The position numbers and the translations under genes are program-made. Below are positions 1 through 43,385 of a stretch of DNA of 43,385 bases, piece by piece. The notes beneath the pieces were generated by a model that searched no databases, was not told where the DNA came from, and saw only the letters and a list, made by a program, of their open reading frames with translations. Every line of letters starts with the position of its first letter. Position 1 is the first letter of the stretch. This stretch comes from a virus (lineage: Duplodnaviria; Heunggongvirae; Uroviricota; Caudoviricetes): positions 1-43,385 of IMG/VR virus record IMGVR_UViG_2778261121_000005. One strand, given 5' to 3'.

Positions 1-1131
1 CTAAGCCGCGTGCTGCGATTCAGGGTTTACAGGCTCTCCGTGGGCTAACACTGCCAGCCCGGCAGCTTTAATATTACGTGCCGCGTTAATGTCGCGATCA
101 TGGTCTGCGCCGCATTCAGGGCAGTGCCATTTACGAACATTAAGAGGCATTTTTTGCATGGTGAAACCGCAGCAACTACAGCATTTTGAGGACGGTAAAT
201 ACTGGTCAATGGCGACCACTGACCGCCCGGCCCATTTGCCTTTGTACTGGAGCTGGCGAACAAGTTCGCTCCAGCCTGCGTCAGCTATTGCTTTAGACAG
301 CTTCGGGTTGCGGATCATGTTTTTCACCTTGAGGGATTCGACGCAAACAACTTGGTTTTCGTTAATCAGTTTGCGGGACAACTTGTGCAGATTGTCCATC
401 CGGCAATCGGCGATTTTCGCGTGGAGTCGGGCGACCTTTAAGCGGGCTTTAATACGGTTTCTTGAGCCTTTTTGCTTCCTGCTTAAACGTCGCTGTAGCA
501 GCGTTAATCGCTTCGCATATTTAGCGGTGTGGCGGGGATTGTCGGTTTTGAATCCGGTATCGGTGACGAATAAATCTTTTAAGCCCACATCAATGCCGAC
601 CGTTTTAGCGGTAACAGGCATTGATACAGGTTCAAACTCACACAGGCAGGAAACAAAGTACCTGCCAGCGCTATCTCTGGAAATGGTAACGGTTGACGGC
701 GCAGATGGTAATTCTCGACTCCAGCGAACATCCAGCGGCGACTTGCTCTTTGCTATATACAACTCGCCGTCACGGTGTTTAAACGCGCTGGCAGTGAACT
801 CAGCCACCTGTTTGTGCCGTTTGCTTTTGAAAGCCGGATATGCAGCTCGTCCGGCAAAGAAGTTAGCAAAGGCGGCTTGTTGGTGGCGCAACGACTGCTG
901 GAGGGGAACGCAGGAAACATCATTCAGCCATATGTATTCAGGCTCTTTTTTGAGCGCCGTAAGGCGAGCGTTGGCCTGTAGATAACCGATCTTTTCTTTT
1001 CGCTCGTAGTACGCATCGGTACGCCAACGAAGGATGGAATTGTAGACGAAGCGCACACAGCCAAACGTCTGAGCTAAAAGCTCAGCCTGCTCAGTTGTCG
1101 GGTAAAACCGGTATTTATATGCGCGTTTCAT
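1..1131 (-). CDS. tnpB: IS200/IS605-family TnpB (OrfB) RNA-guided nuclease-like protein, complete 376 aa
   Basis: Full ORF with stop at 1..3. C-terminal CxxC...CxxC zinc finger (CCSCCG...CPECG) followed by DRDINAARNI, and a GIDVGL aspartate motif typical of RuvC-like OrfB proteins. No tnpA between its start and ybhB. Confidence 0.85.
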   Translation of the reverse strand: MKRAYKYRFYPTTEQAELLAQTFGCVRFVYNSILRWRTDAYYERKEKIGYLQANARLTALKKEPEYIWLNDVSCVPLQQSLRHQQAAFANFFAGRAAYPAFKSKRHKQVAEFTASAFKHRDGELYIAKSKSPLDVRWSRELPSAPSTVTISRDSAGRYFVSCLCEFEPVSMPVTAKTVGIDVGLKDLFVTDTGFKTDNPRHTAKYAKRLTLLQRRLSRKQKGSRNRIKARLKVARLHAKIADCRMDNLHKLSRKLINENQVVCVESLKVKNMIRNPKLSKAIADAGWSELVRQLQYKGKWAGRSVVAIDQYLPSSKCCSCCGFTMQKMPLNVRKWHCPECGADHDRDINAARNIKAAGLAVLAHGEPVNPESQHAA

Positions 1132-2108: not shown

Positions 2109-2393
2109 CTACGATGCAAGAATCCATACCAATAAGCATCCGATAATTGGGAAAGAAAAATCCAACAAACTTCCCACATCCCACACGCGTGGATCAAAAC
2201 CTCCCCACCACGGCATGTTGACACGTTTCCCTTTCCCAAACTTTTCTATCCAGCGATATTCTGCCTGGGTGTGTTCACGCGCAATGAAGAACGTACAACC
2301 GGCTATCGCACCGTAAGCCCAGTTTCCGGTAAAAAATACCAACCAGTACCTGAGCCGCAAAAGCGCAAAGCGAGTGAAGAAATGGAGTGACAT
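2109..2393 (-). CDS. hypothetical hydrophobic protein between tailspike and att
   Basis: 94-aa ORF from ATG at 2393 (track ORF begins at a TTG at 2396); hydrophobic segments; no convincing SD; sits where P22-like phages carry lysogenic-conversion genes. Confidence 0.3.
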   Translation of the reverse strand: MSLHFFTRFALLRLRYWLVFFTGNWAYGAIAGCTFFIAREHTQAEYRWIEKFGKGKRVNMPWWGGFDPRVWDVGSLLDFSFPIIGCLLVWILAS

Positions 2394-2405
2394 CAATGCT
2401 CTTAA

Positions 2406-4463
2406 TCATGAAACTTCCCCATTGGTTGAAAATATGGCTCCTCCAACTCCAAGTGTATTTCGTGTTGTGCTCAACCTAAGAGGGCTGGAGTCAGAATTAG
2501 AATATCCTGTAGCAGAAATAAAAGATCCTCCACTAATAGTCAACTGCGGAACATCGGCTATATCTGAATAAGTTCTGTCAGCAACAGTATTATTTATAGC
2601 CACATGTGATCCAAAAAAACTTCTTATTGTTTGGTTTTTAACTTTACTTCCTTCAATGGTTATCCTACTACCACAGTCGGCAATAAATCCTGAATCTGCA
2701 TCCAGCGTTGCATTCATAAAAGAAGCTTCAGATCTCTCTACATCAATCCATCTAATATCTTTTGTGGGATTTGCACCAAATACATGACAAATATTAGAGT
2801 TAAACCTTACTCCATCTTGGAGGTGCATTAATTTTTTTATATCTGTACCCCATAGCCTTGGAAAATTAACAGATGCTCCTGCATGGCAATCAAATCCCAA
2901 CTCAGCCCCTGAGATATCTACAGCCTTTCCTGAAATAACAGCACCAGTGTCTGCATTAACGGCTGTTCCACAATTGCGCATATCATTACCAGCAACATCA
3001 ACACAACCCGCACCATCAATACGCACACCAAGTGCACATCCATAAAAACCTTTTTCAATATTTGGTTCAAGGACTTTACCACTTGTTTCTGCATCACTTT
3101 CTTCAACGTCATGTCGTCTTGCATCAACATATGCTGTATGAATGCAGGTTAATCCACGATATGAGCAATGTATAGTTTTATGGTCGCGTATATTAACATT
3201 TGAACCATCTCTTACATTCCACCCTATATAACAATAGCTTGCACTTGACCCCTGAAAATCTGCTTTAACATTATAAATACAATTAACTGACGCAACCGTA
3301 CTCTCTGTGCACCGTTCAAACTTGCTTACAGGCATTGATGCCTTGACATTATTTACCAGTTGCAGGGAAGAGTATCTGCTATAAGAAAAATCACATACGT
3401 AATACCCTTCTGGCATATATGCAGCAACACTTTCCTCATCAGGAGCACATCCGGTATGATATGCACTAATTTTTGCACCAAAACTACCATGAATTCCAAC
3501 GTAGAACTTTCGAGCACCTGAATACGGATAGAAATTAAGTTCAGCTTTTTGAGTTACAATAAATGCACAAACATCGCTATCATCTCTATTTTCTTCGATC
3601 TGAATAGCAAATACAGGACTTTTTGCTGCATCGCAAATGTAAAATAAATACTTGTATTCGTAATACGTTCTAACGGTTTTAGTAAACAAACGAGTGTCAG
3701 AGAAAACCACTGAGTCTTCTGATATTATTTTAATCCATGATAAGTCACATCCTGCTGAAATTTCTATTTGCTCATTGAGCACAAAACCGGAAAGAATTTT
3801 AATTATGCAAAAGCCAATGCCATTTTTCCATAGTGGACGCAGTGCAACAGCCGAGTTTAGAGCATCACTAATAGATTTAAAATTACCATATTCCCCAACT
3901 GTTATTGTGAATGCATACCTGGAATTAAATACTGCGGCACTATCTCCAGAGTTAATAGCTGCAGATATCATGTCATAATTTGATATAAAATCATTTGGCG
4001 TGATTATTTCTGCGTTTTTATTGTGCTGGGTTCTAAGTTTTGAATTTACATGAACACTTTTAACTGCAATACGGGAGTCGTCAACAAGTATTTCATTACC
4101 CTCTGTTGCTAACTCTTGTCTTAACTGATCCGGGTCATACTTCAGCACATTCGGAAAATAGAACTGCTGTGAACCATATGCATCATAAACAGCCATAGAA
4201 TGACCCTGCACAGTAACGAACTTGGCAATCTGTCCGTTATATACCGGATATCCAGCAGCGTTAATGATGATTGGTTGCGAAACAGGAACGTGAGAACCGT
4301 CTTCGTTTTCCACATAAACCTGAATCTGGTTTTCAGGATTTACCGGGTCAGTGTCAATTTTACCGATATAAATTTTTCCATTGGCTACGGCTTTAAAAGA
4401 ACGAGCCATAGTGAAGAGTTGCGAAGGCATACTCACTACAACATTGGCTGTAATGTCTGTCAT
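2406..4463 (-). CDS. tailspike protein with P22 gp9-type head-binding N-terminal domain and divergent receptor-binding domain
   Basis: N-terminal ~110 aa ([11 protein letters not shown]...[33 protein letters not shown]...[14 protein letters not shown]...NVLKYDPDQ) closely matches the P22 tailspike head-binding domain as I recall it; the rest differs from P22. Confidence 0.9.
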
Positions 4464-4595
4464 TTAATTTGCTCCAGATACAAGGAATCGCCGCAGCATG
4501 GCTACGGTTGGTATTTGTTGCATACCGAAATGGTACTATTGTTGATTTGTACAGTAGGTTTTACGATGCCATTCCACCCATTTGGTGAGGCATTG

Positions 4596-4853
4596 ATGAT
4601 GTACAGCAAATACGATGAGGCGCAGTTCCACTTGAGGCTTACGCACGAGTTGCACGCTAAGATTAAGCAACGTGCAAAAATGAATAACAGGTCTATCAAT
4701 TCCGAAATTGTGGCTACGATGGAAGAATCACTCTCCAAACCATCACCTGTAAGCGGGTATCGTGATGAAGAAGAGAGGCTGGCCTCATTAATCTCGGAAC
4801 GAGTAAAAGAAGTTGTGGCTGATATCCTTAGAAAAGAAAAAACCCGCGATTAA
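4596..4853 (+). CDS. mnt: Mnt-like ribbon-helix-helix repressor
   Basis: 85 aa; NNRSINSEIVATMEESLSKPSPVSGYRDEEERLA resembles P22 Mnt (NGRSMNSELLQIVQDALSKPSPVTGYRNDAERLA); SD GGTGAGG upstream. The track ORF extends upstream without support. Confidence 0.8.
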   Translation: MMYSKYDEAQFHLRLTHELHAKIKQRAKMNNRSINSEIVATMEESLSKPSPVSGYRDEEERLASLISERVKEVVADILRKEKTRD

Positions 4854-4867
4854 GCGGGTTTAGTTGG

Positions 4868-40700: not shown

Positions 40701-40919
40701 ATGTACTTGACACTTCAGGAGTGGAACGCACGCCAGCGACGCCCAAGAAGCCTTGAAACAGTTCGTCGATGGGTACGCGAGTGCAGGATATTCCCACCAC
40801 CGGTTAAGGATGGAAGAGAGTATCTGTTCCACGAATCAGCAGTAAAGGTTGACTTAAATCGACCAGTAACAGGTAGCCTTTTGAAGAGGATCAGAAATGG
40901 GAAGAAGGCGAAGTCATGA
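40701..40919 (+). CDS. xis: excisionase (lambda Xis)
   Basis: 72 aa MYLTLQEWNARQRRPRSLETVRRWVRECRIFPPPVKDGREYLFHESAVKVDLNRP..., near-identical to lambda Xis as recalled. Confidence 0.95.
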   Translation: MYLTLQEWNARQRRPRSLETVRRWVRECRIFPPPVKDGREYLFHESAVKVDLNRPVTGSLLKRIRNGKKAKS

Positions 40920-41967
40920 GCGCCGGGATTTACCCCCTAACCTTTATATAAGAAACAATGGATATTACTGCTACAGGGACCCAAGGACGGGTAAAGAGTT
41001 TGGATTAGGCCGAGACAGGAGGATAGCAATCACTGAAGCTATACAGGCCAACATTGAGTTATTTTCAGGACACAAGCACAAGCCTCTGACAGCGAGAATC
41101 AACAGTGATAATTCTGTTACGTTACATTCATGGCTTGATCGCTACGAAAAAATCCTCGCCAGCAGAGGAATCAAGCAGAAGACACTCATAAATTACATGA
41201 GCAAAATTAAAGCAATAAGGAGGGGTCTGCCTGATGCTCCACTTGAAAACATCACCACAAAAGAAATTGCGGCAATGCTCAATGGATACATAGACGAGGG
41301 CAAGGCGGCGTCAGCCAAGTTAATCAGATCAACACTGAGCGATGCATTCCGAGAGGCAATAGCTGAAGGCCATATAACAACAAACCCTGTCGCTGCCACT
41401 CGCGCAGCAAAATCAGAGGTAAGGAGATCAAGACTTACGGCTGACGAATACCTGAAAATTTATCAAGCAGCAGAATCATCACCATGTTGGCTCAGACTTG
41501 CAATGGAACTGGCTGTTGTTACCGGGCAGCGAGTTGGTGATTTATGCGAAATGAAGTGGTCTGATATCGTAGATGGATATCTTTATGTCGAGCAAAGCAA
41601 AACAGGCGTAAAAATTGCCATCCCAACAGCATTGCATGTTGATGCTCTCGGGATATCAATGAAGGAAACACTTGATAAATGCAAAGAGATTCTTGGCGGA
41701 GAAACCATAATTGCATCTACTCGTCGTGAACCGCTTTCATCCGGCACAGTATCAAGGTATTTTATGCGCGCACGAAAAGCATCAGGTCTTTCCTTCGAAG
41801 GGGATCCGCCAACCTTTCACGAGTTGCGCAGTTTGTCTGCAAGACTCTATGAGAAGCAGATAAGCGATAAATTTGCTCAACATCTTCTCGGGCATAAGTC
41901 GGACACCATGGCATCACAGTATCGTGATGACAGAGGCAGGGAGTGGGACAAAATTGAAATCAAATAA
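40897..41967 (+). CDS. int: tyrosine integrase (lambda Int)
   Basis: 356 aa, near-identical to lambda Int as recalled (MGRRRSHERRDLPPNLYIRNNGYYCYRDPRTGKEFGLGRDRRIAITEAIQAN...); overlaps xis. Confidence 0.95.
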   Translation: MGRRRSHERRDLPPNLYIRNNGYYCYRDPRTGKEFGLGRDRRIAITEAIQANIELFSGHKHKPLTARINSDNSVTLHSWLDRYEKILASRGIKQKTLINYMSKIKAIRRGLPDAPLENITTKEIAAMLNGYIDEGKAASAKLIRSTLSDAFREAIAEGHITTNPVAATRAAKSEVRRSRLTADEYLKIYQAAESSPCWLRLAMELAVVTGQRVGDLCEMKWSDIVDGYLYVEQSKTGVKIAIPTALHVDALGISMKETLDKCKEILGGETIIASTRREPLSSGTVSRYFMRARKASGLSFEGDPPTFHELRSLSARLYEKQISDKFAQHLLGHKSDTMASQYRDDRGREWDKIEIK

Positions 41968-42040
41968 TGATTTTATTTTGACTGATAGTGACCTGTTCGT
42001 TGCAACAAATTGATAAGCAATGCTTTTTTATAAGGCCAAC

Positions 42041-42055
42041 TTAGTATAAAAAAGC
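42041..42055. repeat. att core (O) copy at the int-side junction, flanked by phage P' arm and bacterial B arm
   Basis: TTAGTATAAAAAAGC, identical to the copy at 1807..1821; preceded by lambda-like P' arm, followed by AGGCTTCA (reverse complement of bacterial TGAAGCCT). Confidence 0.9.
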
Positions 42056-42101
42056 AGGCTTCAACGGATTCATTTTTCTATTTCATAGCCCGGAGCAACC
42101 T

Positions 42102-43385
42102 GTGAACACATTTTCAGTTTCCCGTCTGGCGCTGGCATTGGCTTTTGGCGTGACGCTGACCGCCTGTAGCTCAACACCGCCCGATCAACGTCCTTCTGAT
42201 CAAACCGCGCCTGGTACCTCTTCGCGCCCGATTCTGTCGGCAAAAGAAGCGCAGAATTTCGATGCTCAACACTATTTTGCATCCCTGACACCAGGTGCGG
42301 CAGCGTGGAATCCTTCCCCGATTACCCTGCCTGCGCAACCTGACTTTGTTGTCGGCCCGGCGGGTACTCAAGGTGTAACGCATACCACGATTCAGGCGGC
42401 GGTAGATGCGGCAATTATCAAGCGTACCAACAAGCGCCAGTATATTGCCGTGATGCCTGGTGAGTATCAGGGAACGGTGTATATCCCTGCCGCTCCGGGT
42501 GGAATTACTCTATACGGTACAGGTGAAAAACCGATTGATGTGAAGATTGGGCTTTCCCTTGATGGTGGCATGAGCCCTGCCGACTGGCGTCACGACGTCA
42601 ACCCGCGCGGCAAATATATGCCAGGTAAACCGGCGTGGTATATGTACGATAGCTGCCAGAGTAAACGCAGCGACAGTATCGGTGTTCTCTGCTCTGCGGT
42701 CTTCTGGTCACAAAACAATGGCCTGCAACTGCAAAACCTGACCATCGAAAACACGCTGGGCGATAGCGTAGATGCGGGTAACCATCCGGCGGTGGCACTG
42801 CGTACTGATGGCGACAAAGTGCAGATCAATAACGTCAACATTCTCGGTCGTCAGAACACCTTCTTTGTCACCAACAGCGGTGTGCAGAACCGTCTGGAAA
42901 CGAATCGTCAGCCGCGTACGCTGGTGACCAACAGCTATATTGAAGGGGATGTGGATATCGTTTCTGGTCGCGGCGCAGTGGTGTTCGATAACACCGAATT
43001 CCGCGTGGTGAACTCCCGTACCCAGCAAGAAGCGTATGTGTTTGCACCGGCTACGCTGTCCAACATTTACTACGGTTTCCTCGCCGTAAACAGCCGTTTC
43101 AATGCTTCCGGTGATGGCGTGGCGCAACTGGGCCGCTCGCTGGATGTTGATGCCAATACCAACGGTCAGGTAGTGATCCGTGATAGCGCCATCAACGAAG
43201 GTTTTAACACAGCCAAACCGTGGGCTGATGCGGTGATCTCTAATCGTCCATTTGCGGGTAACACCGGCAGCGTTGATGATAACGACGAAGTACAGCGCAA
43301 TCTGAATGACACTAACTACAACCGCATGTGGGAATACAATAACCGCGGCGTGGGTAGCAAAGTGGTTGCAGAGGCGAAGAAGTAG
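42102..43385 (+). CDS. ybhC: pectinesterase-fold outer-membrane lipoprotein, host gene flanking att-lambda
   Basis: 427 aa, complete; lipoprotein signal with lipobox LTAC; on the host side of the att junction. Confidence 0.8.
   Translation: MNTFSVSRLALALAFGVTLTACSSTPPDQRPSDQTAPGTSSRPILSAKEAQNFDAQHYFASLTPGAAAWNPSPITLPAQPDFVVGPAGTQGVTHTTIQAAVDAAIIKRTNKRQYIAVMPGEYQGTVYIPAAPGGITLYGTGEKPIDVKIGLSLDGGMSPADWRHDVNPRGKYMPGKPAWYMYDSCQSKRSDSIGVLCSAVFWSQNNGLQLQNLTIENTLGDSVDAGNHPAVALRTDGDKVQINNVNILGRQNTFFVTNSGVQNRLETNRQPRTLVTNSYIEGDVDIVSGRGAVVFDNTEFRVVNSRTQQEAYVFAPATLSNIYYGFLAVNSRFNASGDGVAQLGRSLDVDANTNGQVVIRDSAINEGFNTAKPWADAVISNRPFAGNTGSVDDNDEVQRNLNDTNYNRMWEYNNRGVGSKVVAEAKK

Follow-up and report, generated by a model that had tools for sequence, protein, structure and literature searches.

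A P22-type prophage tailspike of Escherichia coli with a swapped, predicted beta-helix receptor-binding module

Tail adaptor and predicted beta-helix

In the characterised tailspikes of the P22 type (those of phages P22, Sf6 and HK620), the rule is a beta-helix that acts as an endoglycosidase or deacetylase on one O-antigen. A more remote point of reference is gp15 of the Staphylococcus epidermidis phage Andhra, described by its authors as a teichoic-acid-binding receptor-binding protein (RBP), for which homology to alginate lyases is predicted only. Here we examine the tailspike gene (2406..4463, minus strand) of a complete P22-like prophage of E. coli contained in the IMG/VR record IMGVR_UViG_2778261121_000005 (positions 1 to 43,385; this stretch of 43,385 nucleotides is the window throughout). 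The gene is a single, intact open reading frame (ORF) of 685 codons plus stop, with an ATG start and no frameshifts, and its product matches phrog_5662 ("tail fiber protein") over the full length. We consider it probable that this is a functional tailspike, i.e., a tail adaptor joined to a swapped beta-helix module that recognises a surface polysaccharide and may process it.

The N-terminal adaptor is a P22-type head-binding (tail-attachment) domain (residues 1-113; 4125..4463, minus strand). PF09008 (Head_binding) covers these residues along its entire model (positions 1-113 of 113, E 3.1e-67, cut-off 24 bits), and phmmer searches against the PDB aligned P22 gp9 (8tvr, 2xc1, 2vky) to residues 1-116 only and Sf6 gp14 (7sg7) to residues 1-160, weakly beyond 113. 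Over residues 1-113, 88 of 113 positions (78%) are identical to P22 gp9 and 106 of 113 (94%) to Sf6 gp14, and in the wider set of P22 gp9, Sf6 gp14, HK620 gp9 and the CUS-3 endosialidase spike, identities over residues 1-113/118 span 78-97%. Like the tailspike genes of other P22-like phages, this one is placed after immI and the ejection-protein genes, and its swap point lies at the YDPDQ hinge. A first-pass annotation made from the sequence alone had assigned the first ~110 residues to the P22 particle-binding domain and called the remainder unlike the P22 receptor-binding region, and homology searches bear out both statements: as the P22 alignment ends at residue 116 and residues 120-685 match no Pfam or NCBIfam model, the protein has the domain, the genomic position and the predicted C-terminal parallel beta-helix of a P22-type tailspike but not the receptor-binding domain of the P22 gp9 endorhamnosidase, for which homology after residue ~120 would be expected. 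Residues 114-185 (3909..4124, minus strand) comprise, according to profile alignments and the structural model, a linker, a neck motif and the N-terminal capping helix of the beta-helix; the neck motif is common to this tailspike, Sf6 gp14 and CBA120 TSP3.

The C-terminal part (residues 186-685, to the C-terminus; 2409..3908, minus strand) is predicted to be a right-handed parallel beta-helix. The structure was predicted as a monomer for a construct of residues 113-685, after an alignment of 22 homologues (A1), with a mean pLDDT of 92.7 and a pTM of 0.87, in agreement with the beta-helix that the first-pass annotation had expected. In this model, regular two-strand rungs run from about residue 186 to the C-terminus, preceded by two short helices plus a capping one (construct residues 34-40 and 50-63 are helical). 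Structures listed with this fold are the autotransporter Vag8 and the tailspike of cyanophage Pam1, and Foldseek against viral models matched uncharacterised phage proteins and "pectate lyase superfamily" proteins. Depolymerases of that superfamily (K1 lyase 7w1c, K64-1 S2-4, AlgE4 epimerase, PL6 lyases and CBA120 tailspikes) are only 8-14% identical to the tailspike and share no verifiable catalytic motif with it; a resemblance at the level of the fold remains. The tailspike gave no match to Pfam Beta_helix (PF13229) above the gathering score, and its distant relatives score 17-27 bits against that model (cut-off 25.9 bits). An SGNH/GDSL hydrolase domain is also missing (no match to PF13472 or PF00657), unlike in the deacetylase tailspikes with an SGNH esterase such as G7C gp63.1.

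The expectation of Gly/Ser/Asn/Ile-rich repeats was only roughly right. Ser, Ala, Ile and Gly are moderately abundant in residues 120-685 (S 10.6%, A 8.7%, I 8.1%, G 8.0%, V 7.8%, D 6.7% and N 6.4%), but what repeats is the structural rung pattern of the beta-helix and not a sequence unit. The same residues (2409-4105) hold 17 cysteines (3%), with construct residues C107, C321, C364 and C386 among those invariant in the close family; virion proteins exposed outside the cell are not usually so rich in cysteine, and these residues may be metal ligands or make up a cysteine ladder.

A mobile cassette and its family

The boundaries of the swap were read from blastn comparisons with a P22-like prophage carrying a different spike (L010) and with CUS-3, to which the window is homologous only at 4106-4508 and up to 2396. 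Hence the exchanged cassette occupies 2397-4105 (minus strand; codons 120-685 plus 9 nt) and starts immediately past the YDPDQ hinge. The cassette has a GC content of 37.5%, versus 49.2% for the prophage between 8000 and 31000. On the upstream side, homology with other P22-like prophages reaches just 45 nt beyond the tailspike ATG.

The whole tailspike protein is found in phages HZ41 (99.3% identity) and JEP4 (97.2%), and the viability of the spike is argued by these near-identical genes. The receptor-binding module recurs in tail fibre proteins of 92CQ (96.9%), HEMP4 (89.4%) and VEc3 (47%), which differ from the present tailspike in their N-terminal adaptors and phage backbones; a literature search on VEc3, HEMP4, 92CQ and HZ41 returned nothing about receptors. 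In 92CQ, a 130-kb myovirus, the module (L002, 5045-6687) is 98.6% identical in DNA to window positions 2393-4035, sits on a different adaptor beside baseplate genes and is accompanied by several other fibre or spike genes. Such identity between the module of a large myovirus and that of a temperate P22-like prophage points to a very recent exchange across phage lifestyles. A second prophage type, located next to yfgI (L001), is 98.3% identical in DNA to window positions 2150-3778, a match that takes in the small ORF downstream of the spike gene; there the module belongs to a 729-aa protein with a different N-terminus. Altogether, 16 of 5426 complete E. coli genomes carry the module, seven on the P22-type adaptor and nine on the other one. 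The cluster of identical proteins numbers 190 members. Three of the matching records (NZ_CP146687.1, NZ_AP039429.1 and NZ_CM142789.1) have two separate matching places each, and these strains may hold a second, possibly partial, copy in another prophage. These sequence comparisons indicate that the module was horizontally acquired and that phages with unrelated backbones exchange it as a cassette.

The close family is small (24 clusters by a word-indexed search, 12 clusters at 50% identity by an exhaustive one), and the same helix appears in it on four N-terminal adaptors, i.e., PF09008, PF18668, PF12571 and PF03906. Two homologues (P0014 and P0018) have an extra C-terminal SGNH/GDSL esterase (columns ~1225-1392 of A1). 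Among the more remote relatives, which are 20-26% identical, one (P0033) adds a glycerophosphodiester phosphodiesterase (GDPD); the latter hints at teichoic-acid-like, phosphate-containing ligands for part of the family. Cluster look-ups of the distant relatives gave only "hypothetical protein" names, and a scan of species-representative genomes found a single distant locus, on a metagenome-assembled contig of a "Mycoplasma sp.", which is uninformative on host range.

PDB sequence searches with the tailspike protein and with the close-family profile recovered only the N-terminal adaptor and neck, and no solved helix. A profile widened with the distant relatives (A2) matches Andhra gp15 (PDB 8egr) with an E-value of 2.7e-59, from which it follows that the structural resemblance to gp15 reflects homology. 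This profile evidence assigns the beta-helix to a small, uncharacterised family that shares ancestry with Andhra gp15 (phrog_5662 and relatives), with homology detectable by profile and the same fold across the whole helix. Andhra gp15 differs in its Gram-positive host, its presumed teichoic acid ligand and its N-terminal attachment, which is made of a loop and a coiled coil.

Alignment A2, together with the strand periodicity of the model, reveals a conserved polar centre on two adjacent rungs (3117..3212, minus strand), composed of R418, D419, R426, H442 and R449 (R306, D307, R314, H330 and R337 in construct numbering). No other charged residue is invariant in all 38 members, which reach down to ~21% identity; the members sharing this R-D...R...H...R centre are of Gram-negative type or metagenomic. 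D419 and H442, like R426 and R449, occupy equivalent positions on successive rungs, and D427, H428, R450, H451 and D452 flank the centre. In Andhra, the H and R of an H...AR motif align locally, whereas a global alignment shifts the register; the mapping of the conserved residues onto Andhra by global hmmalign was rejected for this conflict. The five residues are likely a functional site, and a polar cluster conserved across distant hosts suggests, in the context of the model, catalysis on, or binding of, an invariant and probably anionic chemical group. They also bear on whether the helix could be a non-catalytic adhesin that binds a receptor only, with any enzymatic help coming from elsewhere. 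We find this doubtful, given that five charged residues, counted as invariant across Escherichia, Aeromonas, Pseudomonas and Gram-positive-type relatives, are hard to explain by differing glycans, and that most solved phage beta-helix spikes are enzymes.

A proposed mechanism and the receptor

Building on the domain identity, fold, cassette boundaries, horizontal spread and conserved residues that this analysis establishes, we postulate that the spike is attached to the phage tail through residues 1-113, as it is in P22, Sf6 and HK620, and that the foreign cassette after the YDPDQ hinge (codons 120-685) gives the neck and a right-handed parallel beta-helix of ~500 residues. The analogy with all solved members of this architecture suggests that the helix would trimerise and act as the host-recognition device. 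Its groove may bind a cell-surface polysaccharide, which would probably be cleaved or modified, such that the virion could work its way down to the outer membrane, and the family would spread between phage backbones by recombination at the adaptor/neck junction. Whether the beta-helix module itself is catalytic, a step argued by analogy, we regard as evenly balanced.

Several points weigh against this mechanism, and particularly against its enzymatic part. The tailspike matches no Pfam glycosidase, lyase or esterase model, and the extra SGNH and GDPD domains of the homologues could mean that the helix on its own serves purely as a scaffold for binding. Instead of an active site, the polar cluster could be a feature of the trimer interface. 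At residue level, the local and global alignments to Andhra differ in register by about two rungs.

Given the rule for characterised P22-type spikes, the first-pass annotation had proposed a beta-helix acting as an endoglycosidase or deacetylase on one O-antigen, with the swap setting the infectable serotype. A cassette boundary placed exactly at the hinge where such swaps happen speaks for this proposal, and the conserved polar centre is compatible with catalysis. However, the module has no esterase domain, and its invariant residues (three Arg, one His and one Asp) are unlike the Asp/Glu pairs that tailspike hydrolases typically use.

The serotype idea was tested by reading the O-antigen clusters of lysogens that carry the module. 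Copies with 98.5-99.2% DNA identity were present in strains with an O5 cluster (FORC_082), an O7 cluster (PCP07083), an O11 cluster (MS 198-1), an O15 cluster (118UI, ECO_1_S, ECO_2_R, EECO1006 and MSB1_7C) and an rfbBDAC+glf cluster with no O name (EC332), and only one of 35 O5 genomes had it. The spread of lysogens over several O-antigen clusters means that the module does not track one serogroup, and these near-identical copies tell against an enzyme for a single O-antigen. The same reading was applied, as a control, to the different spike module of an O5 lysogen (L010), which occurs in 37 genomes including O5, O7 and O15 strains. As this module is equally scattered, lysogen serotype is a poor discriminator in general, which lessens the force of the result, and a non-O receptor deduced from the lysogen clusters was not taken as proven. 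This poor discrimination agrees with Pas et al. 2023, who found several RBP subtypes spread over several serogroups and suggested other receptors or drift by point mutation. Thus, the domain swap of the first-pass annotation stands, but its serotype specificity is unproven, with at least five O-antigen clusters among the carriers and a test that is weak by its own control; overall, we rate an enzyme for one O-antigen as rather unlikely.

In three of the five carriers looked at, insertion sequence (IS) elements lie at the galF end of the O-antigen cluster: an IS1 in FORC_082 (L003, 12763-13460), which also has a frameshifted wcaJ, an IS4 inside galF in MS 198-1 (L009, 25658-27004) and two ISAs1 copies in 118UI (L008, 8956-11189). 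These three strains might express little O-antigen or colanic acid.

The heterogeneity of the carriers in O type could also mean that the module recognises a serotype-independent anionic envelope polymer (e.g., enterobacterial common antigen, the lipopolysaccharide core or a shared exopolysaccharide), with a host range that cuts across O serogroups. The Arg/His-rich site and the homology to a presumed teichoic-acid-binding phage protein are in keeping with this, as are the non-O receptors that Pas et al. 2023 propose for other RBP subtypes in several serogroups and the plaques that JEP4 was reported to form on 32 of 67 diverse isolates (PMC8425383). Nevertheless, we see this as unlikely, with the control module showing equal serogroup scatter and a JEP4 host range that perhaps comes from another phage. 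JEP4 was described as a large myovirus whose head measures ~106 nm and whose tail is contractile (PMC8425383), a morphology that misfits its deposited genome, which is P22-like and 39 kb long, and for this reason its host-range data were given little weight; the deposited sequence may stem from a prophage induced in the propagation host and not from the phage that was imaged and host-ranged. Colanic acid is disfavoured as the target, as 92CQ carries a separate "colanic acid degradation protein".

The most far-reaching extension would make the Andhra-like beta-helix a cross-phylum receptor-binding module, with an invariant Arg/His/Asp centre for recognising, and perhaps also cleaving, an anionic envelope polymer that is independent of serotype. 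We put this forward as a long shot. If true, adsorption to E. coli would ignore the O serogroup, which would explain both the O5, O7, O11 and O15 lysogens and the recent spread between temperate podoviruses and a large lytic myovirus.

Prophage setting and significance

The prophage is inserted between ybhB (1240-1716) and a ybhC-like pectinesterase gene (42102-43385), a site that we take, from the K-12 map, to be the classical attachment region of phage lambda. Upstream of the tailspike gene lie Arc/Mnt-type repressors, an Ant/BRO antirepressor (P22_AR_C/Bro-N), a gp16 injection protein (Inj_translocase) and a DUF2824 gene, and the far end of the prophage (flank region 40897-43385) encodes a lambda-type integrase with an arm-DNA-binding domain. 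In strain PCP07083, the related prophage appears to lie at another chromosomal position. Adjoining ybhB, an IS200/IS605-type TnpB (OrfB_IS605, with Cas12f1-like TNB and helix-turn-helix domains) occupies 1-1131 (minus strand), a place taken by bioA in the comparison prophage locus L010; the window shows no tnpA gene for it.

Between a terminator-like hairpin (4840..4861, minus strand; an 8-bp stem with five GC pairs followed by a T run, a consensus match only) and the spike start codon lies an untranslated gap of ~376 nt (4464-4840), which matches in position the "boundary sequence" (bsq1 in L011) annotated upstream of the CUS-3 spike gene. On the other side, 9 nt beyond the spike gene, begins a small ORF (2109..2396, minus strand; 95 aa from a TTG start, with a conserved core of ~75 aa) for a predicted membrane protein that matches phrog_1443 (E 1e-42) and no Pfam model. 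In many lambdoid and P22-like coliphages, a homologue (~80% identity) stands directly downstream of a tail fibre or spike gene, and Aeromonas phages have weaker homologues. Although the ORF is co-linear with the receptor-binding module in the second prophage type, it was rejected as a module-specific partner: it is kept beside different spikes (as in L010) and has no DNA-level counterpart after the module in 92CQ, whose own "membrane protein" is unrelated. The ORF could be a moron or serve in superinfection exclusion.

The tailspike gene is already known from HZ41 and JEP4, and it encodes an ordinary modular tailspike with an uncharacterised receptor-binding family. With the protein present in deposited phages and modular spike exchange well documented, novelty is limited to its membership of a poorly studied family, and we consider the finding a sound annotation of a typical mosaic tailspike that introduces no new principle. 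The module is nevertheless rare yet highly mobile, as seen from ~98% DNA identity across three unrelated phage backbones, and modules of this kind decide which bacteria a phage attacks and are the parts swapped in phage engineering and in depolymerase reagents. Identification of the receptor would annotate the whole family at once, and would show whether the module is a serotype-independent adsorption device, useful for broad-host-range phages.
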